The notes: generated from the sequence alone by a model not told the origin. DNA of 64,000 nucleotides from an uncultured Actinomycetota bacterium (GCA_963732355.1 CAVSZD010000007.1:658983-722982); one strand, 5' to 3'; numbered from the stretch's first letter, positions 2,735 through 45,295 are shown. A program made the numbers and translations.

Positions 2735-2802
2735 TTAGAGGTTGTGCTGTTAGTTAGCGTTTCAACGCGTGGATTCGCTAACGAACCGCACAACCTCTAA
2801 CC
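2735..2802. repeat. 68-bp nested-palindrome intergenic element (sub-family 2)
   Basis: TTAGAGGTTGTG...CACAACCTCTAA termini with an inner GTTAGCG..CGCTAAC stem. Lies between convergent gene ends. Confidence 0.9.
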
Positions 2803-2897
2803 AGGGCACCGGGCCAAGCCCGCGAGGTGGGGCACGACACTGACTAGCCCCGGCCGTCTAACGCGGGCCCGCGGCACAGGGCCGAACCCGCCACACC

Positions 2898-3251
2898 TCA
2901 ACGGGTCGGGCTGTTCCACGCCGCCTTCATCATCGGCACCTGCAGGGGCAACCGGGCCCACACGGCCGCCTTCTGCCACACCGGCCGGCGACTGCGCTGC
3001 ACGTCGAGGGCCATCTGCAGGTTGCCAACCGCAACGACGGCCAGGGTCGCGGTGGTTGCAGCGGGAGCCCATCGCTGCTGGGTGGCAAGACCGGCCGCAC
3101 ACACCAGTTCAGCCACACCGCTGCCGATCACCCAAGCCCGGGCATCGCCCAACTGCTCGGGAATCATGGGCTCGAACACCTTTGGGCGTACCACGTGCAC
3201 GACCCCGCTGAGAGTGAAGGCACCGATGACAAGGGTGGTTCCTGTGGGCAT
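2898..3251 (-). CDS. small integral membrane protein (possibly DoxX-like)
   Basis: Start trimmed to MPTGTTLVIG (ATG 3251), 13 nt after the upstream stop. Hydrophobic helices and GC3-rich codons. Function not recognised. Confidence 0.6.
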   Translation of the reverse strand: MPTGTTLVIGAFTLSGVVHVVRPKVFEPMIPEQLGDARAWVIGSGVAELVCAAGLATQQRWAPAATTATLAVVAVGNLQMALDVQRSRRPVWQKAAVWARLPLQVPMMKAAWNSPTR

Positions 3252-3264
3252 GGCCTCAGCGTAG

Positions 3265-4548
3265 TCACACCAGAATGACGTGACTGAGGGTGTAAATGGC
3301 CAACCCGGCCAGCGCACCAACCAGCGTTCCGTTGAGCCGGATGAACTGCAGGTCACGGCCGACCTGGATCTCGATCTTGCGAGAGGTCTCGTCGGCGTCC
3401 CAGCGATCGACGGTCTCGGTGATCAGCTTCGTGATCTCGTCACGGTTGTTGCGAACAACGTGGACCGCAGCGTCCTCGACCCACGTGTTCACCCGATCGC
3501 GACTGGATTCATTCTCGACCAGGTTTCGGCCCAGCGAGACCAGCGAATCAACGATGCGTACCCGCAGGTCCGAGGTCGGGTCGTCCAAGGCGCGCAGCAG
3601 CATCTCCTTGGCCACCGTGCCCGTCGCGTTGAGGGTTCGGGCGACCTCCGGGTGGTCGAGCACACGCATCTTGGCCTGCTCCGCCTTGTACTGCATGTCC
3701 GCGTCGAAACGGAGGTCGTTGGACAGCTTGATCAATGCCTCATCGATCGACTTGCGCAGGGGATGATGGGGGTCGTCGCGGACATCTTGAGCGAAGCGCA
3801 CTGCCTCGCGGTAGACCTTGTTGGCCACCATGTCGTCGGCCCATCGCGGAGACCAGGTCGGCGCTTGCCGCTCAACAACGTCGGTCACCCGGTTGCGGTT
3901 GTCCGCCAGCCAGTCGTACAACGAGCCAGCCACCAAGTCGATGAGCGGCACATGAGCCCGGTCGGTAACGACCTCCCCAAGCAGATTGCCTGCGGGCTCC
4001 GCGATGGGGAACTCCTCGGCACGCTTGCGCAGAAACTCCCCCACAGCCGCACGCACCTGCTCATCGTCGAGCAGGCCCAGACCGGACTTGATCCCCACGG
4101 CGATCTCACTGGATACCCGCCGGGCGTTCTCGTAGTCGCTGATCCACTGACCGACCCGCAACCCGACGTCCAGGGCCTTGATGCGTTGCCGGACCACATC
4201 CTCGGCCAGGAAGTTGGTACCGACGAAGTCCCCGAGGTTGCGCCCGATCGCGTTCTTGCGCGTGGGAATGATCGCCGTGTGCGGGATCGGGATTCCCAGC
4301 GGGTGGCGGAACAGCGCTGTCACTGCGAACCAGTCAGCCAGGGCACCGACCATGCCCGCTTCAGCTGCGGCGCGCACGTAGCCGGCCCAACCCACACCGT
4401 CTCGCTCCAGCACGAAGGCGATCGCGTAGATCACGGCTGCGGCGAGCAGCGCACCGACGGCCACGAGCTTCATGCGGCGCAGTCCGCGCAGTTTCTCCTC
4501 ATCGGCCACTGTCAGGGCCAAGGCACTCATGGGGGCATCTTGCCCCAC
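3265..4548 (-). CDS. DUF445 domain-containing membrane protein
   Basis: 427-aa ORF with N- and C-terminal TM helices and the FRHPLGIPIPHTAIIPTRKNAIG core characteristic of DUF445/YjiN-like proteins. An alternative start is at 4530. Confidence 0.85.
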   Translation of the reverse strand: MGQDAPMSALALTVADEEKLRGLRRMKLVAVGALLAAAVIYAIAFVLERDGVGWAGYVRAAAEAGMVGALADWFAVTALFRHPLGIPIPHTAIIPTRKNAIGRNLGDFVGTNFLAEDVVRQRIKALDVGLRVGQWISDYENARRVSSEIAVGIKSGLGLLDDEQVRAAVGEFLRKRAEEFPIAEPAGNLLGEVVTDRAHVPLIDLVAGSLYDWLADNRNRVTDVVERQAPTWSPRWADDMVANKVYREAVRFAQDVRDDPHHPLRKSIDEALIKLSNDLRFDADMQYKAEQAKMRVLDHPEVARTLNATGTVAKEMLLRALDDPTSDLRVRIVDSLVSLGRNLVENESSRDRVNTWVEDAAVHVVRNNRDEITKLITETVDRWDADETSRKIEIQVGRDLQFIRLNGTLVGALAGLAIYTLSHVILV

Positions 4549-4558
4549 GTCCGGCGGA

Positions 4559-5317
4559 TCAGCCGAGGGCGCGTCGCATGTGCCAATAGGCCGCGATCAG
4601 CACACTGGTGAAGCCCAAGGTCATCACGGGCACGACCGAGACAGCGAAGACCGCCGAGTCAGCCATCGCGCCCCCACCAACCACGGCGACCGCGGTGAAC
4701 GCAGTGGCGGCAACCGCCCCACCGACCACTGTGGCCCGTGCGGCGATCTTCCCCAGAGCGGAGGGCTGGCGCTGCAGGGGATAGGTCTGCGCACTTCGGT
4801 ACCAGCGCACCGCCCAGACAGCAAGCACCACGAGCCCAATCACGGAGAACAGCACCTGCAGGAAGTAGTGCAGCGGCATCCCCGCAACGTCGGCGTGGAA
4901 GAAGCCCGTCATGCCCGTGACAACTGTCCCGGCGTGGGTGAACAGGTCGAGGAACTGGTGGGTCAGCCCTCCGATGAGCAACGAGGAGAACACGCCCAGC
5001 ACCTTCGCCGGTGTCGTCAATCGCACCCGCAGACCCGGCTGCTGGTGCGGCGCCAGCCGTGCGCGCACTCCCGACGGAGCGAACCAGTCAGCGGGTCGCG
5101 CGAGGAAACCGTGCCAGATCACGAAGAGCGCGAAGCCCACGAGCAAGTTGAGGAACAGCAAGCCGAACACCGTGTGCGTCTGGTCGGTCGTGTACCCCAG
5201 AAAGGGCGCGAACAGCGGCAAGTCGGGGGTCATGGCGCCGATCACCAAGGCCGAGGTCGACACCCACCGCACCCTGATGGGCAGGATGGCGGCCGCGTGG
5301 CTGACGGTGAAAGGCAT
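4559..5317 (-). CDS. DUF4184 family membrane protein
   Basis: Begins MPFTVSHAAAILPI, the DUF4184 N-terminal signature, and is multi-TM. Start trimmed from 5338 to 5317. Confidence 0.8.
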   Translation of the reverse strand: MPFTVSHAAAILPIRVRWVSTSALVIGAMTPDLPLFAPFLGYTTDQTHTVFGLLFLNLLVGFALFVIWHGFLARPADWFAPSGVRARLAPHQQPGLRVRLTTPAKVLGVFSSLLIGGLTHQFLDLFTHAGTVVTGMTGFFHADVAGMPLHYFLQVLFSVIGLVVLAVWAVRWYRSAQTYPLQRQPSALGKIAARATVVGGAVAATAFTAVAVVGGGAMADSAVFAVSVVPVMTLGFTSVLIAAYWHMRRALG

Positions 5318-5384
5318 GGTTCCAGTGTTCCCCCGCACGGCGGCCCCACCACGGAATTGTGGGCAACCTCACCCACGCCGCCAC

Positions 5385-5432
5385 AAGGTTGAACCGATCG
5401 GCGACGATAAGCGTGCCAATCGGTTCAACCTT
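5385..5432. promoter_or_regulatory. perfect 14-bp inverted repeat with 20-nt spacer (operator or hairpin candidate)
   Basis: AAGGTTGAACCGAT (5385-5398) and ATCGGTTCAACCTT (5419-5432), between the divergent DUF4184 gene and tRNA-Thr. Confidence 0.35.
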
Positions 5433-5473
5433 CCCGCCAAGACACCGGCCGGCCTCGGTATCGTTGGAGAATC

Positions 5474-5548
5474 GCCCCGTTAGCTCAGTGGTAGAGCACT
5501 CGCCTTGTAAGCGAAAGGTCGTCCGTTCAATCCGGACACGGGGCTCCA
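5474..5548 (+). tRNA. tRNA-Thr (anticodon UGU), CCA encoded
   Basis: Hand-folded cloverleaf. Acceptor stem GCCCCGT/ACGGGGC, D-arm GCTC-AGTGGTA-GAGC, anticodon loop CTTGTAA (TGT at 5506-5508), T-arm GTCCG-TTCAATC-CGGAC, discriminator T, CCA at 5546-5548. Confidence 0.95.
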
Positions 5549-5618
5549 ACCGGCTGAATGGCAACCTTGTCCTCGTGATGCCTGTGCGGATACGCTGAGC
5601 CCGATTGGGGAGGCACTC

Positions 5619-6155
5619 ATGTGGCAGAACATTCGGGCCAAGCGTGGTGTCATTGCAGCATTCCTCATCGGGGTCATGGTCGCCGGAGCGAGCACCGCAA
5701 CGGCTGCGTCATTGATCACCAGCAAGAACATCAAGAACGGGACGATCAAACTCAAGGATCTCTCGCCCCAGGTGCGTGCGCTGATCTCCCAACCGGGCCC
5801 GGCCGGCGCCACTGGACCGACGGGTGCGACCGGACCCACGGGCACCCAGGGTCCTGCCGGAGTACCAGGGGGCTTCAGCACCGACAACATCACGATCGTC
5901 ACCGGCAATGTCGCCACATACCCGATCCCCTTCCTGGGAGGGGCGGTCCCGCAGTCCAACGCCGAGTGCCCCGTCGGGAAGATCGCGATCGGCGGCTGGT
6001 ACGAGATGCAGGGCATCTACTACAGCCAGCCGGTACCGTTTGTGAACTCCTACCGCCAGGCCGCGCCACGGATATGGTCGGTCAGCCTCGCGTGGCCCAA
6101 CACCTACCCCGATACCAGCGCCAGTTACGTGGCCAAGGCGGTCTGCGCGGGCTGA
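5619..6155 (+). CDS. secreted or membrane-anchored protein with collagen-like Gly-X-Y repeat
   Basis: N-terminal hydrophobic signal/anchor (VIAAFLIGVMVAGASTATA). Eight to nine consecutive GXY triplets (GPAGATGPTGATGPTGTQGPAGVPG, about nt 5796-5870). GGGGAGG RBS lies before the ATG. Confidence 0.75.
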   Translation: MWQNIRAKRGVIAAFLIGVMVAGASTATAASLITSKNIKNGTIKLKDLSPQVRALISQPGPAGATGPTGATGPTGTQGPAGVPGGFSTDNITIVTGNVATYPIPFLGGAVPQSNAECPVGKIAIGGWYEMQGIYYSQPVPFVNSYRQAAPRIWSVSLAWPNTYPDTSASYVAKAVCAG

Positions 6156-6205
6156 AGCGCCCCGAGAAACACCCCATCAGGCACCCGAGCGACTAGCCTC
6201 GCCCC

Positions 6206-6832
6206 ATGTCGACCCGTGTGATTCTCGAGATCTTCGGTTGGATCGGTTCCGGCCTGATCGTGTTGTCCCTGGCCCAGGCCCGCGTGTGGCGCTTCCGGAT
6301 CATGAACTTCATCGGCGCCGTGATCGCCACTGTCTACAACGGCATGCTGTCCATCTGGCCGTTCGCTGCCATGAACCTCGTCATCGCCGTCATCGACGCG
6401 TACTGGCTGGTGCGTCTGCGTAAGGAACGCCAGCCAGAATCGCAGGCCTACGACCTGCTGGAGGTGAACCACGAGGACGCGTACCTGCAGCACTTCCTCA
6501 AGGTTCACGGCGAGGACGCCAAAAAGCACTTCCCCGAATTCACTCCGCAGTCCCCGACCGTCTCCAACGTGATGATCATGCGCGGCGACGAGGCCGTCGG
6601 TGTTGTGAGCATCACTGAAATCACCGACGGCACAGCCAAACTGGGACTCGACTACGTCACGGAACGCTTCCGCGACTTCACCCCCGGCACGTTCGTCTAC
6701 CGGGACTCTGGGATGTTCGAAAGGCTGGGCGTGCGCCGTATCCAGGCACCGGCCACCTCGGGTCCGAAGTACCTACAACGGATGGGCTTCCAGGAACAAG
6801 ACGGCGCCTGGTTGCGTGACGTCGCCGCCTGA
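6206..6832 (+). CDS. membrane protein: N-terminal 3-TM module plus C-terminal soluble (possibly GNAT-like) domain
   Basis: The first ~75 aa form three hydrophobic helices (YgjV/SemiSWEET-like appearance). The C-terminal ~130 aa are soluble. Function not recognised. Confidence 0.6.
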   Translation: MSTRVILEIFGWIGSGLIVLSLAQARVWRFRIMNFIGAVIATVYNGMLSIWPFAAMNLVIAVIDAYWLVRLRKERQPESQAYDLLEVNHEDAYLQHFLKVHGEDAKKHFPEFTPQSPTVSNVMIMRGDEAVGVVSITEITDGTAKLGLDYVTERFRDFTPGTFVYRDSGMFERLGVRRIQAPATSGPKYLQRMGFQEQDGAWLRDVAA

Positions 6833-6871
6833 CCGGACTTCGCCACAGACATCCCAGTACCGTCACCGTCC

Positions 6872-8359
6872 ATGAGCACCGCCACCGTCGCCAGGGCTCC
6901 GCGCACCTTCTTCGGACACCCTGCGGGACTTTCGACCCTGTTCTTCACGGAGTTCTGGGAGCGCTTCTCCTATTACGGGATGCGCGCCCTATTGGTGCTG
7001 TACTTGGTCGCTTCGCCCGATGGCGCCACTCCACCCGGTCCGGGACTTGGCTTGTCAACCGCCACCGCCTCAGCCATCTACGGCACCTACGTCGCGCTGG
7101 TCTACCTCTTCCCACTACTCGGTGGCTGGATCGCCGACCGGGTGTGGGGATTCCGTCGCTCGGTCCTGGTGGGTGGCATCGTCATCGCCTGCGGCCACTA
7201 TTCGATGGCCATGCCCACCGAAGCGACGTTCTGGCTGGGCCTGCTGCTCATCGCGCTGGGCACCGGACTGCTCAAACCCAACATCTCCGCCATGGTCGGC
7301 GAGCTGTACCTGGACCACGACACCAAACGTGACGCGGGTTTCTCGATCTTCTACATGGGTATCAACCTCGGCGCGTTCGTGGCACCGCTGATCACCGGCG
7401 CGCTCATGGACAACTTCGGCTGGCACTATGCGTTCGGCGCTGCCGCGATCGGGATGACTTTCGGCGTGATCCAGTACGTCATCGGCGGGCGCAAGAACCT
7501 CGCAGGGATCGGGCTGAGCGCCCCCAACCCGGCGAGCCCCAAGGAGAAGCGCAACGTCTTCGGAATGCTCGCCGCGGCGGTTCTGGGCATCGTGGTGATT
7601 GCCCTGATCGATGCCTGGCTATTCGGTTTCGAACTGGCCGACATGGTCGACATCCTGGCCATCTTCATCCTGTTGGTACCGGTCGTGTACTTCGTCCGGA
7701 TGTTCCGGACCCCGGGCATGAGCAGTGACCAGAAATCCCGCCTCCACGCCTTCCTCGGATTGTTCCTCGGGGCCGCCGTCTTCTGGATGATCTACGACCA
7801 GGCGGGGTCCACCCTGAGCGTGTTCGCCGAGGACGAGACCGATCTCACGGTCGGCGGGTTCAACATCCCCGTGCCCTGGTTGCAGTCGATCAACCCCATC
7901 TTCATCATCATCTTCGCCCCGATCTTCGCGGCCATCTGGTCACGGCTGGGCGATCGGGCGCCGTCCACCCCGCTGAAGTTCGCGTGGGCCCTCTTCGGCA
8001 TCGGCCTGAGTTTCCTGGTGATGATCATCCCCGCCCTTGACGCGGAGACCGGGGCCGAAGTCGCCGTGTGGTGGCTGGTCGGGGTGTACCTGATCCAGAC
8101 CTGGGCCGAGTTGCTGCTCTCCCCGATCGGCCTGAGCGCCTCGACCCGACTGGCCCCTCCCGGGATGGAGGGCCAGATGCTCGCGTTGTGGTTCCTGGCG
8201 GTGTCCGTTGGTGACACCATCGGCGCGCAGATTCTCTCGCGGATCGGTGACAACTACGTGCGCGTGTTCACCACATTCGGCATCATCGCGATGGTCGCCA
8301 CCGTGATCGCCTTCCTCTTCGTTCCCAGGCTCAAGAAGATGATGGTTGGCGTTCACTAG
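6872..8359 (+). CDS. proton-dependent oligopeptide transporter (POT/PTR2 family, MFS)
   Basis: FFGHPAGLSTLFFTEFWERFSYYGMRALLVLYL is the classic PTR2 signature. 495 aa, multi-TM. Confidence 0.9.
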   Translation: MSTATVARAPRTFFGHPAGLSTLFFTEFWERFSYYGMRALLVLYLVASPDGATPPGPGLGLSTATASAIYGTYVALVYLFPLLGGWIADRVWGFRRSVLVGGIVIACGHYSMAMPTEATFWLGLLLIALGTGLLKPNISAMVGELYLDHDTKRDAGFSIFYMGINLGAFVAPLITGALMDNFGWHYAFGAAAIGMTFGVIQYVIGGRKNLAGIGLSAPNPASPKEKRNVFGMLAAAVLGIVVIALIDAWLFGFELADMVDILAIFILLVPVVYFVRMFRTPGMSSDQKSRLHAFLGLFLGAAVFWMIYDQAGSTLSVFAEDETDLTVGGFNIPVPWLQSINPIFIIIFAPIFAAIWSRLGDRAPSTPLKFAWALFGIGLSFLVMIIPALDAETGAEVAVWWLVGVYLIQTWAELLLSPIGLSASTRLAPPGMEGQMLALWFLAVSVGDTIGAQILSRIGDNYVRVFTTFGIIAMVATVIAFLFVPRLKKMMVGVH

Positions 8360-9245: not shown

Positions 9246-9363
9246 TCTGGACAGTCTGCCAACGCCGCTGGGCACACCTGTTGCCACGGCCGCCGTTGTT
9301 GCGAAGTCGCCCGGGCCCTCGCGGGGTGTCCTCGTCACTCCGAACCGTGCCGCGGCGCCCGCG

Positions 9364-9431
9364 TTAGAGGTTGTGGTCCTGGTTAGCGAATCCACGCGTT
9401 GTTTCTCTAACCAACCGCACAACCTCTAACC
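9364..9431. repeat. 68-bp nested-palindrome element (reverse orientation)
   Basis: TTAGAGGTTGTGGTCCTGGTTAGCGAATCCACGCG...CACAACCTCTAA. The left arm equals the reverse complement of the right arm of the 45228 copy. Confidence 0.9.
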
Positions 9432-9515
9432 AACCGTGGCGGGGGCCGCCGTTGTGCAGCGCCCGGGCCCTCGCGGGGTGTCCTCGTCACTCCGAACCGT
9501 GCCGCGGCGCCCGCG

Positions 9516-9583
9516 TTAGAGGTTGTGGTCCTGGTTAGCGAATCCACGCGTGGTTTCTCTAACCAACCGCACAACCTCTAACC
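9516..9583. repeat. 68-bp nested-palindrome element (reverse orientation)
   Basis: Near-identical to the 9364 copy. Confidence 0.9.
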
Positions 9584-9690
9584 AACCGTGGCGGGGGCCA
9601 CCGCCCTGCCAGACCACATCGGCGCCGTGTCGCAACCACCCGCAACGCCGCCCAGCCCGCATGCTGGAATCGATGCCGACTGGAGGTTAG

Positions 9691-11244: not shown

Positions 11245-11293
11245 GTGCCCCCCAGGGGTTTCGGTCGCGATAAGCGTGTCACAATTCCTTAGA

Positions 11294-11400
11294 CCTCATC
11301 CAGAGGGGCAGAGGGACCGGCCCGTTGAAGCCCCGGCAACCTACCGTTACACGGCGGAAATGGTGCCAAGTCCGGCCGCGCGAGCGGGAAGATGCGAAGG
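11294..11400 (+). promoter_or_regulatory. SAM-I (S-box) riboswitch aptamer
   Basis: CTCATCCAGAGGGGCAGAGGGACCGGCCCGTTGAAGCCCCGGCAACC...ATGGTGCCAAGTCCGGCCGCGCGAGCGGGAAGATG follows the S-box consensus (AGAGnGGnnGAGGGAnnGGCCCnnTGAAnCCnnGCAACC...GGTGCnAAnTCC...AGATGAG). P4 has a GCGA tetraloop. The P1 3' strand runs into the GAAGGA Shine-Dalgarno of the downstream gene. Confidence 0.85.
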
Positions 11401-11406
11401 ATTGCC

Positions 11407-12646: not shown

Positions 12647-12768
12647 CCAATCGGTGGGTCTATTTCCCACGAGCGGCTCGTTCTGGGTACAATGGGGGTG
12701 ATCACATCGTGGTCCCGCGGAGCAGAAGCCGAGCGGCACATGAAACACAGCAAGGACAACACAACGAA

Positions 12769-12981
12769 ATGAGCAGTGTCAGCGGAACCGTTAAGTGGTT
12801 CAACGCCGAAAAGGGCTACGGCTTCCTCTCCCTCGACGACCAAGAAGGCGACGTCTTCGTGCACTGGAGCGCAATCCAGGGCGACGGATACAAGTCCCTT
12901 CAAGAGGGTCAGCGAGTCGAGTTCACCATCGTGCAAGGACCGAAGGGCGCGCAGGCGGACACCGTCGTGCCGTTGTCCTGA
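12769..12981 (+). CDS. cspA: cold-shock protein (CspA family)
   Basis: [15 protein letters not shown] and DVFVHWSAI are the RNP1/RNP2 motifs. 70 aa, with a long AT-richer 5' leader. Confidence 0.95.
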
Positions 12982-13505: not shown

Positions 13506-14252
13506 ACCGGCCGGTCGGCCAGGTCACCCGCGGAACCACAGGCACCAACCGCTTACGCCGGTTCGACCGTTGGATCAACCACCTGTGCGGTCCTGAACTA
13601 CGCCGGACCGATCGTCCGCTGGCCGTGGATCTGGGATTCGGCGCACACCCCGCCACCTCCGTTGAATGGCAACGCTCGCTCACGCGGATCAATGCGCAGG
13701 CACGAGTGGTGGGGGTGGAGATCGATCGGGGTCGGGTGGCCGCGGCACGCGGTGTGATCGAGGCGATCCACGGCGGCTTCGAAATCCCCACTGAAGACCG
13801 GCCACTCATCATCCGTGCGGCCAATGTGCTGCGTCAATACGAACAGGACCGACGTGCAGCCCGCCTGGGAACTCATGGCATCGCGACTTGCCGCCGGAGG
13901 TTGGATCATCGACGGCACGTGCGACGAACAAGGGCGACTCACCGCCATCGCGAGCATCGACGAATCCGCCGAGCCAAGGTGGCTGACCCTGTCGTGCCGC
14001 TTGGCCGGGTTGGAGCGCCCGAGCGAACTGGCCGCGCGACTACCGAAGGCCTTGATCCACCACAACGTCACCGGCCACTGGATCCACGACCTGCTCAAGG
14101 AAATGGACCGGGCCTGGGAGCGTGCGCCCAGGTGGGGCGCGCGGCAACGCTGGATCTCGATGACCGAGGATATGGCCGGCGCTGGCTGGACCGTTCGGGA
14201 TGGACCTGCCCGGTGGCGCCTCGGCGAACTGACTGTGGCCTGGCCGCCGTGA
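13502..14252 (+). pseudogene. class I SAM-dependent methyltransferase-like protein, interrupted by a 1-nt frameshift
   Basis: Frame 2 gives MNRPVGQ...AVDLGFGAHP...IIRAANVLRQYEQ. Frame 3 continues DVQPAWELMASRLAAGGWIIDGTCDEQGRL...VAWPP. The switch is near 13843-13850 (GAC-C-GAC). Confidence 0.75.
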
Positions 14253-14467
14253 ACGGCGACACTGCCCCGGGTTTGAATCCCTCAGATGCTCATCGCCGAC
14301 TGGCACGAACTTACTGGGACGCGCCCTGGCGTGTCCCAGTTGTGGATTCGCTGACCAGGACGGCTCGGCCGTCGGGGCACACCACGACCCCGGGTGAACC
14401 TCAACGGCCGGCGGCGGGCACCAGCTGCCCCGCCCCGACTCGCCACGCGGGCCCCGACCTGCCCGCG

Positions 14468-14535
14468 TTAGAGGTTGTGCGGTTCGTTAGCAAATACACG
14501 CGTGGATTCGCTAACCAGGACCACAACCTCTAACC
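14468..14535. repeat. 68-bp nested-palindrome element (forward orientation)
   Basis: TTAGAGGTTGTGCGGTTCGTTAGCAAATACACGCGTGGATTCGCTAACCAGGACCACAACCTCTAACC. Confidence 0.9.
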
Positions 14536-14665
14536 AGGACGCCAGGTCAACCAGGACAACCCGGCCGTCGGGGCACACCACGACCCCGGGTTGAACCTCA
14601 ACGGCCGGCGGCGGGCACCAGCTGCCCCTGCCCCGACTCGCCACGCGGGCCCCGACCTGCCCGCG

Positions 14666-14733
14666 TTAGAGGTTGTGCGGTTCGTTAGCAAATACACGCG
14701 TGGATTCGCTAACCAGGACCACAACCTCTAACC
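14666..14733. repeat. 68-bp nested-palindrome element (forward orientation)
   Basis: Identical to the 14468 copy. Confidence 0.9.
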
Positions 14734-14862
14734 AGGACGCCAGGTCAACCAGGACAACCCGGCCGTCGGGGCACACCACGACCCCGGGTTGAACCCCACC
14801 AGCCGGCGGCCGGCACCAACTGCCCCGCCCCGACTCGCCACGCGGGCCCCGACCTGCCCGCG

Positions 14863-14874
14863 TTAGAGGTTGTG
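14863..14874. repeat. truncated element (left terminal arm only)
   Basis: TTAGAGGTTGTG followed by unrelated sequence. This ends the tandem array. Confidence 0.7.
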
Positions 14875-14946
14875 AGGCATGGCGATTGCGTGTCCGCCTG
14901 ACTTCGCAACAACGGTTCCCCGCACCCGGCCCAGAAGCAGACAACG

Positions 14947-14978
14947 AAAGGGCCCCCCGGTCATCCGGGAGGCCCTTT
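14947..14978. terminator. bidirectional stem-loop terminator candidate
   Basis: AAAGGGCC...GGCCCTTT outer stem with inner CCCGG-TCAT-CCGGG, 15 nt after the stop of the Lys/Ala-rich gene on the minus strand. Confidence 0.5.
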
Positions 14979-14992
14979 CGAACTGCGTCTAG

Positions 14993-26884: not shown

Positions 26885-27865
26885 TTAGGAGAGCCCCGCC
26901 GCCGACGTGGCGTCCGCGTACTCGCTCTTCAATTCCGCCAACTGCTCCTCGTTCAACGGGATGAACAATGCCGCCTCGGCGATCGCTGCGTCATTCTCCA
27001 CGAAGTACTGGAGGAAAGAGGCGAACGCCGGGTTCGAACCCAGTGCCTGGATCGACGGGTAGATGAACAGCGGGCGCCCCAGCGGCTTGTAGGTGCCGTC
27101 CTGGACCGTCTCCGGGCTGGGTGCTACACACCCGTCGCCGGCGTCGATCTGCACGGCGCGGACCTTGTCCTGGTTCTCTTCGTAGTAGGTGTACCCGAAG
27201 TAGCCCATGCCCCCGGTCGAACCAGAGACACCCGTCACGACCACGTTGTCGTCCTCGGAGGGGGTGTAGTCGGTGCGGCTGGCGCCTTCTTCACCCACGA
27301 TCACGTCGGTGAAGTAGTCGAACGTGCCCGAGTCGGTGCCAGGTCCGAAGAGCTTTATCTGCTCATCGGGGAATGCCGGGTCGACCTGGTTCCAGTTGTT
27401 GACCTGCGAGTCTGGCTCCCAGATCTTCTTGAGCTGCTCCACCGTCAGGCACTGCGCGAAGTCGTTCGAGGTGTTCACGACCACCGTCAGGGCGTCGTTG
27501 GCAACGACCATCTCCTGGAAGTCGACGCCTGCCTCCTTGCAGTTGGCCGCCTCGTCGTCCTCGATCGGCCGAGACGCGTCGTTCATGTCGGTCTCACCGC
27601 GGCAGAACTTCTCGAAGCCACCGCCAGTGCCCGAGGTTCCGACCGTGACGTTGATGTCGGGGTTGGTCTCCTTGAAGATCTCGGCCGCCGCCGAGGTCAG
27701 CGGCGCGACGGTGGAACTACCGTCCACGCGCACCGAACCGGATGTTCCCCCACCATCGGCAGCCGGCGACTCGGTTGAATCGTTGTTGCCTCCGCCACAG
27801 GCGGCCAGCGTCAGAGCGCCGGCGCACACAACGCCGGCGACCTTGATTGAACGGGCGAATTTCAC
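26885..27865 (-). CDS. pstS: phosphate ABC transporter substrate-binding lipoprotein
   Basis: Lipobox LTLAAC, VDGSSTVAPL and GTSGTGGGF PstS motifs. GTG start 27865, preceded by GGGAGGAAAAGG. Confidence 0.92.
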   Translation of the reverse strand: MKFARSIKVAGVVCAGALTLAACGGGNNDSTESPAADGGGTSGSVRVDGSSTVAPLTSAAAEIFKETNPDINVTVGTSGTGGGFEKFCRGETDMNDASRPIEDDEAANCKEAGVDFQEMVVANDALTVVVNTSNDFAQCLTVEQLKKIWEPDSQVNNWNQVDPAFPDEQIKLFGPGTDSGTFDYFTDVIVGEEGASRTDYTPSEDDNVVVTGVSGSTGGMGYFGYTYYEENQDKVRAVQIDAGDGCVAPSPETVQDGTYKPLGRPLFIYPSIQALGSNPAFASFLQYFVENDAAIAEAALFIPLNEEQLAELKSEYADATSAAGLS

Positions 27866-28071: not shown

Positions 28072-28490
28072 CCACCATCACCCACCAGCCAAACCGGACC
28101 CCCGGCGGCTGGCGCACGGTTTGCCGCCACCCACGGGCCAAACCGCGCCCAGCGGCGAAGCAAAGCTGGAAACCGGCAAACCAATCGCCCGATCCCACCA
28201 TCACCCACCGGCCAAACCGGACCCCCGGCGGCCTGGCGCACGGTTTGCCGCCACCCACCGGCCAAACCGCGCCCAGCGGCGAAGCAAAGCTGGAAACCGG
28301 CAAACCAATCGCCCGATCCCACCATCACCCACCGGCCAAACCGGACCCCCGGCCTGGCGCACGGTTTGCCGCCACCCACCGGCCAAACCGGACCCCCGGC
28401 CTGGCGCACGGTTTGCCGCCACCCACCGGCCAAACCGGACCCCCGGCCTGGCGCACGGTTTGCCGCCACCCACCGGCCAACCGCGCCCAA
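28072..28490. repeat. compound tandem repeat array (~123-bp unit x2 then 47-bp sub-unit x~3.5)
   Basis: CCACCATCACCCACC starts at 28072, 28195 and 28319. CCAAACCGGACCCCCGGCCTGGCGCACGGTTTGCCGCCACCCACCGG recurs with a 47-bp period from about 28336. Each unit contains the imperfect inverted repeat CGGCCAAACCG / CGGTTTGCCG. Confidence 0.85.
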
Positions 28491-35950: not shown

Positions 35951-35951
35951 G

Positions 35952-36296: not shown

Positions 36297-36332
36297 AGCC
36301 CTGTTCACCGCAGCAGCGACTAGTCTGGTCAC

Positions 36333-38334: not shown

Positions 38335-38370
38335 GGTTTGGCAGACACACAAATGGGGAAAGGTTCACAC

Positions 38371-38601: not shown

Positions 38602-38707
38602 GGTCTGGTTGCCCCGCCCCCGCGCCGCGTCTTTCGGTGACAAACCGACCACCCAGTGGGCCGCTGGTCACCAGAACATACCGGCGCCGGCGTTGCATGT
38701 GGTTTGA

Positions 38708-39280: not shown

Positions 39281-39298
39281 ACAACCAGTCTGGACATA

Positions 39299-40414
39299 AT
39301 GGCAAGGCGCGCCGCGAACCCCCGCCCAGACACCGAGGATGGCTTTGTGCAACTGACCCGCGACGAAGCTCTGAGAATGCGCCTGGCCAACCTTCGGCTC
39401 AGCCAGCCGGGTACAGGGACGGCCGAGCTGGCCGACTGGTTCGGGGCGATGCAGGCGCAGGATCTGACCAGTGGCAAGTGGTCCTTGGGTGCGCGACTGC
39501 CCGGAGCGACCGAAGCCGACATCGACGCCGCCCTGGCCAACGGCGAGGTCCTGCGCACCTGGCCGATGCGTGGCACGATTCATGTGATCCATCCAGAGAA
39601 CGCCCGCTGGATGCTGGACCTGACCGGGCGCCGGGCGCTGAACGGTCTGAAGGCACGCTGGGACTTCCTGGGGCTCAATAGCCAGATCGTTGACCAGGCG
39701 GCTGAGGTCCTGGGTGCCGCGCTGAAGGGCACCCGCCTGACCCGCGCCCAGTGCCTTGCCACTCTGGAGGCCGCGGGGATCGAGACCGGAACCGGCCGCT
39801 CGTACCACCTGCTGTGGCACACCGCGCAGATCGGGGTCACGTGCATCGGGCCGAACGAGGGCTCCGAACAGACCTTCGTGTTGCTGGACGAATGGGCACC
39901 GCGGCAACGCACGCCCGACCGCGACGAAGCCCTGGCGATGCTGGCTCGGATGTATTTCCAAAGCCACGGGCCCACCACCGGCAAGGACTTCCAGGGGTGG
40001 ACGGGGTTGACGAGCACCGACGCGAAGAAGGCAGTCGCCGCCGCAGATCTGACAAGCGCCACCTTGGACGACCAAGAGGTCTTCTACGTCCCGGGGCCGT
40101 CACCGGAGCCTCCCGAGGCCTTGCTGCTGCCTGGTTTCGACGAGTTCATGCTCGGCTACAAGGACCGCGCACTGTTCCTGGACCCGGTCGATGCCGGACG
40201 AATCGTGCCCGGCGGCAACGGAATGTTCCGCAACACCGTGGTCCACCGTGGCCGGGTGATCGGCACCTGGCAGCGCAAAGTCCTGTCGAAAACCACTCGC
40301 CTGACGATCACCGGCTTCAAGACCGTGCCCCGTGCCGCGCGCGACGCATTCGAAGCACCGGCATCACGTTACGCCGATTACACCGGTAAGGACCTCGACC
40401 TGCGCTTCGACTGA
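39299..40414 (+). CDS. winged-helix DNA glycosylase, AlkZ/YcaQ (HTH_42, DUF1006) family
   Basis: LRLANLRL...ELADWFGAMQAQD (Q-phi-Q/D catalytic-type motif), LRTWPMRGTIHV, and the C-terminal GYKDR...NGMF..TVV..GRVIGTW pattern. Start ATG 39299. Confidence 0.8.
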   Translation: MARRAANPRPDTEDGFVQLTRDEALRMRLANLRLSQPGTGTAELADWFGAMQAQDLTSGKWSLGARLPGATEADIDAALANGEVLRTWPMRGTIHVIHPENARWMLDLTGRRALNGLKARWDFLGLNSQIVDQAAEVLGAALKGTRLTRAQCLATLEAAGIETGTGRSYHLLWHTAQIGVTCIGPNEGSEQTFVLLDEWAPRQRTPDRDEALAMLARMYFQSHGPTTGKDFQGWTGLTSTDAKKAVAAADLTSATLDDQEVFYVPGPSPEPPEALLLPGFDEFMLGYKDRALFLDPVDAGRIVPGGNGMFRNTVVHRGRVIGTWQRKVLSKTTRLTITGFKTVPRAARDAFEAPASRYADYTGKDLDLRFD

Positions 40415-40476
40415 CACGCCCGGATGTGCTGGTGACCGACTGGTGTGGCCGCTAGCGTCACGCGGGAGGAGGCCAC

Positions 40477-41610
40477 ATGTCCGACAGTGGTAGCCAATCC
40501 CCCGAGGGGCTGAAAGCTGGCACTTTGAGCGCGCCGATTTCGGGATGGATGCGCAGGTCGATGGCACCGTGGAGCGCTCACGCCTACATCGTCTTCATCG
40601 TCCTGGTGCTCGTCGCATGGCTGGCGACAACTCTGCTGGGCCGGGTCTGGTACCTGCTGTGGTGGTTCATCATCGCGGCATTCCTCTACTTCGCATTGGC
40701 GCCGGCCGTCGACTGGCTGGTCAAGAAGGGCGTGAAGCGGGGGCTGGCCACTGGTCTGGTCATGCTCGGCCTCATCGCCGGAATCCTGACCTTGATCATC
40801 TCCATGACACCACTGATCGTCAGCGAGACCGAAACCGCGATCAACGACATCCCCGCGCTGATCACCAACCTGAAGGACATCGCGTCGCACTTCGGCGTCA
40901 ATGTCGACACGACCAGCAACAGCCAACAGGTGCAATCAGCCCTGTCAACCCTGCAAGGGCATTTGCCCGACATCGCAGGCGGGGCGCTCAGCGCCACAAG
41001 TGCTCTCATCGGCGGGCTCTTCGAGTTCTTCGTGGTCCTGCTCTTCACGTTCTTCCTGCTGGCCAACCAGAACAAGTTCCGTCGATTCATACTGTCCTTC
41101 TTCGCGCCTGGCACCCAGACCTTCGTCGGGCAGGCCTGGGACATCGCGGTGTACAAGACCGGCGGCTACCTCTACTCGCGCATCCTGACGTCGTTCCTCG
41201 CCGGCTCAGTCATCGGAATCACGTTGTGGGCTCTCGGGTGCCCCTACGCCCTGGCGCTGGCGATCTGGTACGGGCTGATCTCGCAGTTCCTGCCCATGGT
41301 CGGGACCTACGTGGCCGCGGCCTTACCACTGCTGATCCTGGCCCTGCGCGACCCGATGGACGCAGTCATCTTCATTGTCGTCCTGGCCATCTGGATCCCC
41401 TTCCAGGACTACGTCATCAGCCCACGGGTATCGGCCAAGACCATGCAGTTGGCTCCGGCGACCGCGTTGACCGCACTACTGGCCGGTGGGGCACTGTTCG
41501 GGGCACTCGGCGCGTTCCTGGCACTGCCCGCCGCTGCTGTTATTCAGAGCATCCTCACCGCGTTCTTCCCACGCCACGAGGTCTTGGAGAGTGCCGCCGG
41601 GCGAAAGTGA
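40477..41610 (+). CDS. AI-2E family transporter (PerM/UPF0118)
   Basis: Eight TM helices. FFVVLLFTFFLL and ALPLLILAL...IPFQDYVISPRV are typical of the family. GGGAGGAGG RBS. Confidence 0.85.
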   Translation: MSDSGSQSPEGLKAGTLSAPISGWMRRSMAPWSAHAYIVFIVLVLVAWLATTLLGRVWYLLWWFIIAAFLYFALAPAVDWLVKKGVKRGLATGLVMLGLIAGILTLIISMTPLIVSETETAINDIPALITNLKDIASHFGVNVDTTSNSQQVQSALSTLQGHLPDIAGGALSATSALIGGLFEFFVVLLFTFFLLANQNKFRRFILSFFAPGTQTFVGQAWDIAVYKTGGYLYSRILTSFLAGSVIGITLWALGCPYALALAIWYGLISQFLPMVGTYVAAALPLLILALRDPMDAVIFIVVLAIWIPFQDYVISPRVSAKTMQLAPATALTALLAGGALFGALGAFLALPAAAVIQSILTAFFPRHEVLESAAGRK

Positions 41611-41619
41611 GGCGCGGGG

Positions 41620-42201
41620 TCACTGCCGGACCGCCAGCACCACCGTGTCCAGTGCGATGGCACCATCGACGGGCCGCTGGGCCACCTCGGCGTAGTCGAT
41701 CCGCATGCCTTCAAGGGCGGCGACAGTCTGCTCGACCGTGAAGCAGACGCCCGGGTCCGGCGGGCCACCATGACCGAGTTCCACGTTCGACTTGTCATGG
41801 GCGACCACCAGCACCACGCCGCCAGGCTTGACCCAGTTGCGGACCCGGCGCAGCACACGCGCCTGGAGGACGTCGGGAACCTGCAGGTACGAAAGGAGCA
41901 CAAGGTCGACGAGGTAGGTCGGCTCAAAGGTCTCGGCATCGCTCACGACGGTTGCCAACTGCACTTGCGCCTCGAAGGCCATCCGCCGGGCCTTCTCGAG
42001 ACCGACCGCCGAGAAATCGACCGCGGTGACGTCCCACCCCTGCTTAGCGAGCCAGACCGCGTTGCGGCCCTCACCGGCCCCGAGGTCGATTGCCGAACCT
42101 GGCGGGAGGTCGCTGAGGAACTGGGCCACGAACTGGTTCGGCTCCCCACTCCACACCAGCTCGGCGTCGCTGTACCTTGCGTCCCATCCCTGCGCGTCCA
42201 C
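41620..42201 (-). CDS. class I SAM-dependent methyltransferase
   Basis: WDARY...AIDLGAGEGRNAVWLAKQGWDVTAVDFS is motif I plus the acidic loop. Confidence 0.8.
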   Translation of the reverse strand: MDAQGWDARYSDAELVWSGEPNQFVAQFLSDLPPGSAIDLGAGEGRNAVWLAKQGWDVTAVDFSAVGLEKARRMAFEAQVQLATVVSDAETFEPTYLVDLVLLSYLQVPDVLQARVLRRVRNWVKPGGVVLVVAHDKSNVELGHGGPPDPGVCFTVEQTVAALEGMRIDYAEVAQRPVDGAIALDTVVLAVRQ

Positions 42202-42245
42202 GCCACCATTGAACCAGTGGTCGCCGCCCCAAGCGGGACCGTTGG

Positions 42246-42313
42246 TTAGAGGTTGTGCTGTTGGTTAGCGTTTCAACGCGTGGATTCGCTAACCAACGGA
42301 ACAACCTCTAACC
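42246..42313. repeat. 68-bp nested-palindrome element (sub-family 2)
   Basis: TTAGAGGTTGTGCTGTTGGTTAGCGTTTCAACGCGTGGATTCGCTAACCAACGGAACAACCTCTAACC, in the divergent promoter region of the methyltransferase gene and pgm. Confidence 0.9.
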
Positions 42314-42380
42314 AGGGACGGATGTACGCCAAACGGCATAGGCCGGGAACGCGCAACCGAAGCCGACTACCCTGCCAGAC

Positions 42381-44002
<1,622 letters not shown>

Positions 44003-44006
<4 letters not shown>

Positions 44007-44632
44007 GCGCGATCGTTCTGGGCGTTGGTCCGGGCTTGGGCATGTCGCTGGCGCGTGCATACGCAGAGACCGGGCGACCGGTTGCAGTGGTGGCGCTGCA
44101 TCAGGAACAGGCAGACAGCTTTGCCGACGAGCTCGGAGGTGGTGCTGCCGGTTTCGCCGGAGACCTCGGCGACGCGGCACAGGTGAAGGCGGTGATTGAG
44201 CAGGCCGCTGCACAGCTCGGGGCTCCCGACATCGTCCACTACAACGCCTCGCTGCTGGTCGAGGGATCCCCCACGGCCGTACCTCTGGACGCCGTGGAGT
44301 CGGCGTGGCGCGTCGGTTGCCTCGGTGCGTGGGCTGCTTTGCAAGCGGCAGTGCCGCTCATGGACGAGGGGTCGGCCTTCTTCGCGACGAACAGCGGGGT
44401 GTCGGTCGACCCTTGGTCGGGCGGCAGCGTCTTGAGTTCGGCCAAGGCCGCGCTGCGCAACTTCATGTTTTCGGCCGCTGACGAACTACCTCATTTGAAC
44501 ATCGCGATGATCACAATCATGGGTGTCATCAAAGAGGGCACCGACCTTTCCCCCGATGAGATCGCGCGCAACTTCCTGGCCCTGCTCGAAGAACGCCAAC
44601 CGCCGGTGGAGACGTTGCTGCCGCGGGCCTAG
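44003..44632 (+). CDS. SDR-family NAD(P)-binding oxidoreductase
   Basis: ATG 44003 overlaps the pgm stop (ATGA). N-terminal [20 protein letters not shown] Rossmann motif. 209 aa. Confidence 0.75.
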
Positions 44633-44641
44633 TTTGGACGT

Positions 44642-45031
44642 ATGCGAATCCTGGTCGTGCTGATTCTGGCGGCAATCGCGGTGTACCTCGTGCTGCGGTT
44701 GCTCAGTGGCGGCGCGGCCCGCGTGGGCGCCAAACCGGCGCCGCGGTCGCTGCCACCGGTGGATAGCGGTGAGTTCGAGGAACCGGCTGCAATTGCCAGC
44801 GGGCCAGACCGCGGTTTCGGGGTATTGAGGCTGACCCCCAGCCAGTTGATCTTCTCCGGCAACTCAGGGCGCATCACCACCCTCGAACGACTGGACATCG
44901 TGGGGGTGGCCGCCACCAAACAACTCCCCGACCACGACACCGTGAAAGCGGTGCTGGCCGTGTCAACTCGCGAGGGTGTGCACTACTTCGCCGTCGACGA
45001 CCCCGGCGCCTGGGAGCGCCGCCTGCTTTAG
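44642..45031 (+). CDS. membrane-anchored hypothetical protein (PH-like C-terminal domain?)
   Basis: N-terminal TM helix (ILVVLILAAIAVYLVLRLL), then GVLRLTPSQLIFSG...HYFAVDDPGAWERRL. No family recognised with confidence. Confidence 0.6.
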   Translation: MRILVVLILAAIAVYLVLRLLSGGAARVGAKPAPRSLPPVDSGEFEEPAAIASGPDRGFGVLRLTPSQLIFSGNSGRITTLERLDIVGVAATKQLPDHDTVKAVLAVSTREGVHYFAVDDPGAWERRLL

Positions 45032-45062
45032 CGCGCCCCGACCCAGCCCGCAAGCGCCCGCG

Positions 45063-45130
45063 TTAGAGGTTGTGCGGTTCGTTAGCGAATACACGCGTGG
45101 ATTCGCTAACCAGGACCACAACCTCTAACC
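45063..45130. repeat. 68-bp nested-palindrome element (forward orientation)
   Basis: TTAGAGGTTGTGCGGTTCGTTAGCGAATACACGCGTGGATTCGCTAACCAGGACCACAACCTCTAACC. Confidence 0.9.
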
Positions 45131-45227
45131 AGGAGCACCGCGGGGTTGCCGCACCGCCCCGCCGGCGCCCCGGCGTCGCACCTCCCGAGGCGTCGCCGGG
45201 CGCCCCGACCGCTCGCACCCCACCGCG

Positions 45228-45295
45228 TTAGAGGTTGTGCGGTTCGTTAGCGAATCCACGCGTGGATTCGCTAACCAGGACCACAACCTCTAACC
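45228..45295. repeat. 68-bp nested-palindrome element (forward orientation, perfect inner 30-mer palindrome)
   Basis: The inner GTTAGCGAATCCACGCGTGGATTCGCTAAC is perfectly self-complementary. This copy starts 165 bp after the previous one. Confidence 0.9.

Follow-up and report, generated by a model that had tools for sequence, protein, structure and literature searches.

Several described systems come close to the element reported here. The TIR-type MITEs Correia/NEMIS, ERIC and RUP show a target-site duplication, for instance TA in Correia, and a parent IS can usually be identified for them. The BIMEs of E. coli are mosaic REP clusters in which whole units (Y/Z types) alternate with linkers, and at the ends of IS200/IS605 and at integron attC sites, HUH or tyrosine recombinases recognise imperfect hairpins formed by a single strand. 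REPINs consist of two conserved inverted motifs and a spacer of fixed length, forming a hairpin of about 70 bp (PMC3116915).

We analyzed a 64-kb stretch of DNA from an uncultured Actinomycetota bacterium (hereafter, the window) that hosts eight full copies of a palindromic element, together with syntenic and element-containing DNA of related genomes. The element shares with the REPIN/REP-RAYT system (Bertels & Rainey 2011, PMC3116915) the inverted motifs at fixed distance and the hairpin, hundreds of extragenic copies without target duplication, and also occasional tandem clusters, vertical inheritance and lineage-specific sub-families. It differs from REPINs in that its interior is a second conserved palindrome instead of a free spacer and in that the sampled DNA shows no RAYT, the single-copy Y1/HUH transposase gene that such repeats typically flank, and from classical REPs in that its arms are not small imperfect palindromes preceded by GTAG. 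Like Correia/NEMIS, ERIC and RUP, it is short, non-coding, intergenic and high-copy, has terminal inverted repeats, could form RNA hairpins, and may occasionally supply stop codons or terminators to its neighbours, but it displays no target duplication and no parent IS was seen in the sampled DNA. With BIMEs it has in common a mosaic of few discrete motif alleles, the tandem clusters and the location at 3' gene ends, although here the mosaic lies within a single nested palindrome of fixed length. The conserved mismatches giving strand polarity, and the conserved arms around a variable interior, recall IS200/IS605 ends and attC, which differ by their recombinase, cassette ORFs and conserved cleavage tetranucleotide, none of which is shown here. 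Overall, the REP/REPIN-like reading fits the element best, with the RAYT not found in the sampled DNA, and the element looks like a new family of this known type of intergenic repeat.

Architecture of the element and its copies in the window

The element is a nested palindrome, G-TTAGAGGTTGTG-N42-CACAACCTCTAA-C, whose core measures 66 bp; counting the invariant G and C on either side of it (start-1 to end+1), the element spans 68 bp. The exact pattern TTAGAGGTTGTG-N42-CACAACCTCTAA occurs seven times in the window, at 2735, 9364, 9516, 14468, 14666, 45063 and 45228, while the shuffled window sequence yields no occurrence and none is expected by chance; the copy at 42246 has a single mismatch, its right arm being AACAACCTCTAA. 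The eight full copies and the lone arm at 14863-14874 reported by a first-pass annotation of this DNA are real, but the cores end 2 bases earlier than it listed, and it overlooked one further fragment. The features are as follows, none with an assigned strand; the MAG is the sister-species assembly MFD00905.bin.1.230.

2735..2800 (68 bp: 2734-2801): copy 1, GCGTTTCAAC sub-family; site 1, between convergent DUF3151 (+) and DoxX-like (-) genes
9288..9603: tandem array, 152-bp unit (spacer plus element), 2.1 units
9364..9429: copy 2, interior close to the reverse complement of the 14468 type; site 2, divergent region between EamA (-) and DUF3263 (+)
9516..9581: copy 3, tandem partner of copy 2
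14256..14942: 687-bp segment absent from the MAG, holding the site-3 array and fragments
14341..14360: partial element consisting of the inner right half and the bubble, GTGGATTCGCTGACCAGGAC; left edge of the array
14354..14874: tandem array, 198-bp unit, 2.6 units
14468..14533: copy 4, site 3
14666..14731: copy 5, identical to copy 4
14863..14874: lone left arm, end of the truncated third unit of the array
42246..42311: copy 6, right arm with one mismatch; site 4, divergent region between methyltransferase (-) and phosphoglucomutase (+)
45063..45128: copy 7; site 5, where a 129-aa ORF (+) and an acetyltransferase gene (-) converge
45228..45293: copy 8, with a perfect-palindrome inner 30-mer

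Copies 7 and 8 are tandem partners 165 bp apart, with their flanks duplicated too, and neighbouring copies in the window form local tandem arrays that include the spacer. The same holds for 15 of the 80 clusters in the listed tiles plus the window. Subsequent local amplification of copies together with their spacers into short tandem arrays is shown.

Across at least 98 paired copies at 80 loci in the tiles listed and the window (allowing up to 2 mismatches per arm), the arms form an invariant 13-bp inverted pair, GTTAGAGGTTGTG / CACAACCTCTAAC, separated by 42 bp in all copies but one (97 of 98). There is no palindrome within the arm GTTAGAGGTTGTG itself, whose conserved leader is GTTAG. The GTTAG/CTAAC blocks are as invariant as the arms and, as read directly from the sequence, place stop codons in all six frames, whereas the positions between them take a few discrete alleles; 30 of 68 alignment columns are invariant. 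Concerning the interior, the perfect 30-mer of copy 45228, the CGGTTC/CAGGAC bubble and the separate sub-family of 2735 and 42246 (GCGTTTCAACGCG) all stand as annotated; copies 9364 and 9516, described as reverse complements, have a flipped interior but keep CGCG as left flank. The flanks CCGCG and CCAGG, previously taken as conserved, turn out to be only two of about four alternative alleles: CCGCG, GTTGG, CCTGG and CCTCG occur on the left, their reverse complements on the right, and left and right combine freely. The bases immediately outside the arms behave as inverted-repeat alleles and not as direct repeats. Information content drops to zero beyond about 7 bp on either side, and flanks are unique between copies except inside local arrays. 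Beyond these slots, flanks are no more complementary to each other than permuted pairs, so that nesting of the element in a larger palindrome or in a pre-existing terminator was rejected.

The 19-bp module of arm plus slot is itself repeatable. In the divergent sub-families represented by L030 and L068, both arms have changed with the architecture maintained. Each of the 109 inner cores has the two arms, or variants of them, on its sides, every unpaired exact arm adjoins a complete copy or an array, no half-element borders a gene, and the genomes sampled contain no separate outer-only or inner-only elements.

The predicted hairpins are of high stability (-35 to -56 kcal/mol, z-scores of -4 to -10) and do not differ between the strands. 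Variable positions are paired in 84.9% of cases versus 87.9 +/- 0.4% in shuffles, and all 500 shuffles equal or exceed the observed value; being mismatched more than random assortment gives, they contradict selection purely for a stable terminator hairpin. Bubble alleles combine as A/B' (35), B/A' (29), A/A' (31) and B/B' (1). The allele and mismatch pattern is that of one asymmetric master present in two orientations. Orientation relative to transcription of co-directional neighbours is not significant at cluster level (p = 0.13).

Abundance, genomic position and orthologous sites

Among the 8-kb tiles listed as matching the exact pattern (at least 63), 62 derive from the MAG and one from the Nanopelagicales MAG BC1.147. 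Loci have unrelated flanks, and the copies of the MAG are spread across four contigs. In syntenic DNA, which was sampled without bias, we counted 8 copies over the 64 kb of the window and 6 over 42.6 kb of MAG sequence, a density of about 125-140 copies per Mb; the estimate per genome is several hundred copies. The element is a dispersed, lineage-specific family and not a local duplication. The lineage consists of uncultured soil actinobacteria known from MAGs only and labelled Nanopelagicales or Actinomycetota.

Outside this lineage, the exact pattern had no match in JGI metagenome contigs, and the element none in viral contigs, plasmids or phages. A generalised GTTAG-framework pattern gave three matches in the JGI contigs, two of which are simple GTTAGAG repeats and were discarded; the third (L074, another organism) is the 19-bp arm module alone, in a 7-copy array directly after enolase. 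Rfam returned no match on the elements at gathering threshold and, below it, only generic long-hairpin plant miRNA precursors (24-30 bits vs thresholds of at least 90), and a literature search for the arm strings found only chance primer matches. As the first-pass annotation had supposed, these Rfam, plasmid, phage and literature string searches assign the element to no named family.

None of the 98 copies (80 loci, tiles listed plus window) lies inside a gene. The five window sites are intergenic as annotated, with sites 1, 3 and 5 at convergent gene ends and sites 2 and 4 in divergent regions, and tabulation over the listed tiles shows that convergent ends are favoured: elements occupy 32% of the intergenic regions between convergent genes, 12% of those between co-directional genes and 10% of those between divergent ones (chi-square p = 5e-6). 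Neighbouring gene ends are 3' ends in 99 of 153 cases, at a median distance of 45 bp, and the terminal TAG of the element is the stop codon of five genes. These data show that elements landed in intergenic DNA, mostly shortly after stop codons. Some ORFs were also seen to run into the stop codons of the element.

Comparison of orthologous sites reveals the presence/absence polymorphism. Sites 1, 4 and 5 are filled in the clade of the window, L064 and L065; relatives whose proteins are 81-92% identical have either no element there or just a decayed one from another sub-family, and the empty sites of several relatives are gaps of only 2-31 bp. Site 1 is empty in L075 (15-bp gap) and carries two tandem copies in the MAG (L003 2562 and 2737), which also has two copies at site 2 (L070 11659 and 11800). 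Site 4 is filled in L064 and L065, and L066-L069 retain an empty, 31-bp ancestral spacer. Site 3, occupied in the window, has no copy in the MAG, whose homology stops at window position 14255 and restarts at 14943, both points being adjacent in the MAG; the 687-bp segment has on one side the stop codon of the + gene upstream (TGA, 14250-14252) and on the other a terminator-like hairpin that is conserved (AAAGGGCCCCCCGG...CCCTTTC). At orthologous sites the arms remain intact while flanks diverge by 17-18%. Besides the element, filled sites contain 80-600 bp of GC-rich, unique DNA that the empty ones do not have, so that no clean filled/empty pair gives the inserted unit base by base, and no excision or insertion intermediate was observed. 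Taken together, the element is shown to have multiplied recently in the clade containing the organism of the window. In strain L064, an IS-like interruption (orfA plus rve) and a loss of synteny are found in association with the repeats.

Search for a mobiliser and competing explanations

Target-site duplications were sought with k = 2, 3, 4, 5, 6 and 8 and offsets from 0 to 11 bp; there were none, the best case being 7 of 64 singleton copies for one 3-mer in 864 tests. In the roughly 0.76 Mb sampled (an estimated 15-20% of any one genome), a motif regex detected no RAYT-like ORF, and when 7,309 six-frame ORFs were compared with E. coli RayT by phmmer, the best E was 3.8. Pfam revealed no transposase in 20 unassigned ORFs beside elements or in gaps, and the Pfam tables of the syntenic loci, like the window itself, as annotated, contain none. 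An all-against-all BLAST of 514 called proteins yielded no multi-copy gene but only a duplicated secreted protein. No parent IS appears in the sampled DNA; the pattern of the genome scan required both arms 40-48 bp apart and so was blind to a full-length parent IS. The stretches flanked by elements proved ordinary: a DEAD-box helicase (L001), an ABC transporter (L062) and a non-coding stretch (L027).

Other identities were rejected as well. The elements have the hairpin of an intrinsic terminator but not its U-tract, CCAGG, CCAAC or CGCGG following on the 3' side, and a terminator scan gave no excess over shuffles. A CRISPR array has many regularly spaced repeats with unique spacers, whereas the arrays here never exceed 3 copies and their spacers are copies of one another. 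Resemblances to parS, DnaA-box, IdeR-box and attC each fail on sequence or arrangement.

Three other explanations have to be weighed. The one with most in its favour, though we consider it doubtful, is a module selected by the host, i.e. a bidirectional terminator, an RNA-stabilising 3' structure or a chromosomal-protein site, spread by recombination or gene conversion. The enrichment at convergent gene ends, the short distance to 3' gene ends, the stable hairpins alike on both strands, the six-frame stops, the arms preserved in diverging flanks and the L074 array after enolase all agree with it, and in high-GC actinomycetes a long hairpin lacking the U-tract is an accepted form of terminator. 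However, the excess of mismatches is the opposite of what selection for pairing gives, no U-tract follows the hairpin, divergent promoter regions are also among the occupied sites (about 10%), the site 3 array adjoins a canonical terminator-like hairpin that is conserved in the MAG, where the elements of this site are absent, and close relatives cope with 2-31-bp spacers at the same sites; moreover, function leaves the origin of new copies unexplained.

We regard as unlikely a classical TIR-MITE, an internally deleted IS whose 13-bp TIRs would be bound as double-stranded DNA by the DDE transposase of a full-length copy elsewhere. The terminal inverted repeats are indeed perfect, fixed differences distinguish the left half from the right, as is often the case for IRL and IRR, and the expansion is confined to one lineage; yet target-site duplication and transposase were not found in the sampled DNA, the bases outside the arms act as inverted-repeat alleles, and inner cores are always arm-flanked with no half-element bordering a gene. 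The first-pass annotation had proposed a REP/MITE-type non-autonomous element, or a terminator or protein-binding module, of which the REP/REPIN-like part is retained; a strict MITE is not supported (no target duplication, and no parent IS in the sampled DNA), and pure selection for a stable terminator hairpin is contradicted. It had also left room for a merely local duplication, with neither further copies nor presence/absence polymorphism. Such a product, or a chance palindrome, is practically refuted: the tandem arrays with duplicated spacers would suit it, but chance predicts no copies at all, copies are abundant genome-wide in the MAG, on four contigs and with unrelated flanks, and sites filled in the clade of the window are empty in relatives.

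We favour, with a probability of roughly 55%, a lineage-specific, high-copy, non-autonomous REPIN-like palindromic intergenic repeat with a putative mobiliser acting in trans, local tandem amplification and possible co-option as terminator or insulator.

Proposed mode of spread and significance

In the proposed mechanism, the two invariant 13-bp arms enclosing the 42-bp interior would let a single strand fold into a long imperfect hairpin. Spread may be catalysed in trans by a putative single-copy enzyme that recognises either the arms or the folded hairpin. The analogy is with HUH/Y1 transposases, whose substrate is single-stranded DNA, and such an enzyme could read the polarity that the conserved mismatches would give to the hairpin. 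Copies would be retained mainly at 3' gene ends, where a hairpin with stops in six frames may be harmless, or useful as an insulator of transcription and translation. A more specific version, which we advance as speculative and improbable in all its parts together, sees the element as the non-autonomous half of an actinobacterial REPIN-like system whose putative mobiliser is not a known RAYT and reads a two-layered hairpin (arm, slot and inner palindrome, with the 19-nt module), maintained mismatches setting strand polarity and the whole perhaps co-opted as a six-frame stop and bidirectional insulator cassette.

The word Actinobacteria is absent from the RAYT/REPIN literature retrieved; if the specific version is true, vertically inherited 'replicator' repeats would be extended to a phylum with none there. 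REPIN-RAYT systems would reach Actinomycetota if the partner is a RAYT-like gene; otherwise a different mechanism would be at work. In either case, a well-defined and very abundant repeat family is added to an uncultured, MAG-only actinobacterial lineage. From a practical point of view, the repeats lengthen intergenic DNA, give rise to tandem arrays and will be a source of error in assembly, binning and gene calling. The recent burst in one clade against empty sites in its sister clades offers a natural experiment on repeat invasion and persistence, and the conserved asymmetry provides a concrete handle for finding the mobilising enzyme.

Copies and anatomy of the element

The window has a G+C content of 66% and an ordinary housekeeping gene content (DUF3151, DUF445, an EamA transporter, glucosyl-3-phosphoglycerate synthase, the pst operon, polyphosphate kinase, phosphoglucomutase and pantothenate/NAD genes); it contains no transposase, a result that also draws on the Pfam tables of syntenic loci. 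The nested-palindrome element, whose arms GTTAGAGGTTGTG and CACAACCTCTAAC stand in inverted orientation around a 42-bp interior, far exceeds chance: the 12-mer TTAGAGGTTGTG, with one mismatch allowed, occurs 17 times (0.05 expected) and the complete pattern TTAGAGGTTGTG-N42-CACAACCTCTAA 7 times (0 expected). The core measures 66 bp, or 68 bp with the invariant G before and the invariant C after it. The copies and fragments are:

Site 1, 2735: one copy, flanked by convergent genes
Site 2, 9364 and 9516: two copies, flanked by divergent genes
14341-14360: element fragment
Site 3, 14468 and 14666: two copies, flanked by convergent genes
14863: lone left arm
Site 4, 42246: eighth copy, right arm with one mismatch, flanked by divergent genes
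Site 5, 45063 and 45228: two copies, 165 bp apart, flanked by convergent genes

Neighbouring copies form local tandem arrays, spacer included, with units of 152 bp (2.1 repeats) and 198 bp (2.6 repeats). The perfect 30-mer that the first-pass annotation had described in the copy at 45228, the CGGTTC/CAGGAC bubble and the GCGTTTCAAC sub-family were all confirmed.

In an alignment of 69 distinct copies, 30 of the 68 columns are invariant and a further 20 nearly so. The fixed parts are the arms (G-TTAGAGGTTGTG and CACAACCTCTAA-C), the inner GTTAGCG and CGCTAAC, and the centre ACGCGT, while the slots between them adopt only a few discrete states: CCGCG, GTTGG, CCTGG or CCTCG in the left flank, with their reverse complements in the right; CTGTTG or CGGTTC (state A) and GTCCTG or GTCCTC (state B) in the bubble; and two inner alleles differing at two positions, a (GAAACAAC) and b (GAATCCAC). 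Slot plus arm compose a 19-bp module, starting (slot)G-TTAG, which is present twice per side and whose outer version is itself tandemly repeated in several copies (those in L011, L061, L063, L020, L039, L042 and L059). As read from the sequence, the four invariant TTAG/CTAA blocks provide each of the six reading frames with a TAG or TAA, and the terminal TAG of the element is the stop codon of five neighbouring genes.

The arm module also occurs alone in another high-GC organism, since at locus L074 (WPCI01255873.1, 47-183) 7.2 tandem 19-bp modules of CACAACCTCTAAC+CCCGGC lie directly 3' of the enolase stop codon, adjoined by a short hairpin, GTTAGCGGTTGT...ACAACCTCTAAC, without the inner palindrome.

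Concerning the variable positions, the bubble combinations A/B', B/A', A/A' and B/B' number 35, 29, 31 and 1, respectively, and the inner combinations a/b', b/a', b/b' and a/a' 37, 21-33, 11 and 0. Pairing was evaluated on a 32-pair hairpin, with the 3' partners shuffled among copies 500 times as the null: 84.9% of the cells are paired, versus 87.9 +/- 0.4% after shuffling (500 of 500 shuffles at or above the observed value), and double changes are rarer (14 cells versus 52). Hence, the variable positions are anti-correlated between the two sides, the opposite of what would result if a maximally stable hairpin were selected. Rather than eroding, the asymmetry is maintained, and it fits a single asymmetric master that occurs in both orientations, together with symmetric derivatives and about 25% bubble/inner recombinants. 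The predicted hairpins are nonetheless of very high stability (-35 to -56 kcal/mol, z-scores between -4 and -10).

Abundance, boundaries and occupancy of orthologous sites

Species-representative genomes were scanned with the element pattern; among the 8-kb tiles listed (at least 63), 62 of 63 belong to 'uncultured Actinomycetota bacterium MFD00905.bin.1.230' (CAWFSJ01, at least four contigs; hereafter the MAG) and one to 'Candidatus Nanopelagicales' MAG BC1.147. Collinearity of the MAG with the window, at 86-90% nucleotide identity, marks them as sister species. Allowing up to 2 mismatches per arm, the listed tiles and the window hold at least 98 paired copies in at least 80 clusters. Density was counted in synteny-fetched DNA, a sample not biased by the element; it amounts to 8 copies in the 64 kb of the window and 6 in 42.6 kb of the MAG, which extrapolates to roughly 400-450 copies in a genome of ~3.2 Mb. 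JGI metagenome contigs, IMG/VR contigs, plasmids and phages yielded no exact match to the pattern, the arm strings returned only chance primer matches in the literature search, and no catalogued family matches the element. At family threshold, the only Rfam matches in the window are a SAM riboswitch (11293-11398, 79.5 bits), upstream of a PALP-domain (cysteine synthase/cystathionine beta-synthase-like) gene, and a tRNA-Thr(TGT) gene at 5474-5548.

Information content is zero outside about 7 bp on either side of the element, and the flanks are unique, with the local arrays and a pair separated by 3.5 kb in locus L062 as the only exceptions. Past the slots, the flanks show no excess of complementarity over permuted pairs (-18.6 vs -18.2 +/- 0.5 kcal/mol), and no direct repeat of 2, 3, 4, 5, 6 or 8 bp was found at offsets of 0-11 bp; the slot bases are inverted-repeat alleles, not a target duplication. 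GC-rich micro-repeats adjoin some copies: abortive left ends, CCCGCCCGCGTTAGAG, are repeated four times in L016 (3400-3476), and tandem units of 13-22 bp flank a copy on both sides in L065, the site-4/5 locus of the MAG (12650-12760 and 12830-12940), which suggests slippage-prone replication around the hairpin.

Syntenic loci were fetched via phosphoglucomutase (PGM) and GpgS orthologues, and include a close strain (L064, 98% PGM identity), the MAG (L065, 95%) and more distant relatives (L066-L069, L071 and L075).

Occupancy of the five sites
Site 1: filled in the window (one copy) and the MAG (two), with the interior in opposite orientations in the two species; a 15-bp gap in L075
Site 2: two copies in the window and in the MAG
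Site 3: filled in the window, empty in the MAG; homology ends at 14255 and restarts at 14943, points that are adjacent in the MAG
Site 4: filled in the window, L064 and L065; L066-L069 (85-92% PGM identity) have a conserved 31-bp spacer instead
Site 5: filled in the window (two copies), L064 (one) and L065 (one); empty in L066, L068 and L069, with a gap down to 2 bp; a decayed copy of another sub-family in L067

At filled orthologous sites the arms are intact and the flanks 17-18% different. These sites also hold 80-600 bp of unique GC-rich sequence missing from the empty ones, and the inserted unit is delimited only approximately. More distant genomes contain a few copies of diverged sub-families that retain the architecture with both arms changed (L030, L068 6126-6193, L066 918-976 and L067 749-821), and none was found within 15-21 kb in L069, L071 and L075. 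The filled and empty sites, together with these diverged sub-families, show an old architecture with a recent burst in the clade of the window.

A conserved bidirectional terminator-like hairpin (AAAGGGCCCCCCGGTCATCCGGGAGGCCCTTTC, window 14943-14980) adjoins the site-3 array and is also found in the MAG, L071 and L075, with elements or without. In L071 (3050-3290, reverse strand) the site-3 orthologue carries a different insert, bounded by inverted repeats about 110 bp apart (CGAACTGGTTGGCGTG ... CACGCCAACCAGTTC) and placed between the stop codon and the conserved terminator hairpin, both as at window site 3; this position looks like a hot-spot at which unrelated small elements insert. At window 28072-28480, a stretch upstream of the pst operon that lies between pstS (26885-27865, minus strand) and a NUDIX gene, there is a local tandem repeat unrelated to the element, in which 124-bp units (2.6 repeats) overlap 47-bp units (3.3 repeats, CACCCACCGGCCAAACCGG...GCGCACGGTTTGCCGC); it is absent from every other fetched locus.

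Gene context and search for a mobiliser

No copy lies within a gene. In the tiles, elements occupy 31 of 96 intergenic regions between convergent genes, 32 of 261 between co-directional genes and 9 of 93 between divergent genes (chi-square p = 5e-6). Of 153 neighbouring gene ends, 99 are 3' ends (median distance 45 bp). Counted by cluster, the elements have no significant orientation with respect to co-directional genes (p = 0.13). Between two copies whose cores are identical and whose flanks differ, L027 6378-6865 spans 488 bp with neither a convincing ORF nor an Rfam match, and may harbour an unannotated small RNA or decayed gene.

Among 514 called proteins, the only multi-copy gene is one duplicated secreted protein; genes between nearby copies are ordinary, and no half-element borders a gene in the sampled DNA. 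A motif regex detected no RAYT in the sampled fraction of the genomes, and neither did a phmmer search of 7,309 six-frame ORFs, likewise from a fraction of each genome, with E. coli RayT as query; Pfam analysis of 20 unassigned ORFs returned ankyrin, heliorhodopsin, TatD and similar domains and no transposase; the heliorhodopsin gene of the sister MAG is at L027 3744-4592 (PF18761, E = 2e-94).

The sole transposase-like gene in the sampled DNA is an rve integrase (13633-14319) with an IS3-like orfA, in the site-5 element of L064 (ENA ERZ25039515 contig_66994). The foreign DNA that carries them cuts the element after CACAACC, from 12744 onward, and synteny with the window is lost past this point. 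The interruption may reflect targeting of the repeat by an IS, a behaviour known from REPs, or else an assembly join.

Nature and significance of the repeat

What is established is a non-coding palindromic repeat that is dispersed and lineage-specific, polymorphic for presence and absence, and locally amplified in tandem. The first-pass annotation had proposed a REP/MITE-type element, or a terminator or protein-binding module. The strict definition of a TIR-MITE does not fit, for lack of a target-site duplication and, in the sampled DNA, of a parent IS; nor does that of an intrinsic terminator, for lack of a U-tract, or that of a classical REP, whose arms would be palindromic, unlike those here. 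Architecturally closest are REPINs, in which a conserved inverted motif pair at fixed distance forms a hairpin, with no target duplication and with tandem clusters (PMC3116915). Because of this architecture, and since those three definitions fail, we slightly favour (at about 55%) a non-autonomous, REPIN-like element that a putative enzyme mobilises in trans, in which the maintained mismatches would probably act as a polarity signal. A secondary use as terminator or insulator, a function that we infer, would accord with the retention at 3' gene ends, and the six-frame stop codons fit it.

High-copy intergenic palindromic repeats are of a well-known kind, and this particular family is uncatalogued; the RAYT/REPIN literature found by our search makes no mention of Actinomycetota. 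The value of the finding could rise through the modular build of 19-nt units in two layers, the statistical evidence that the asymmetry is maintained, and the occurrence in Actinomycetota.
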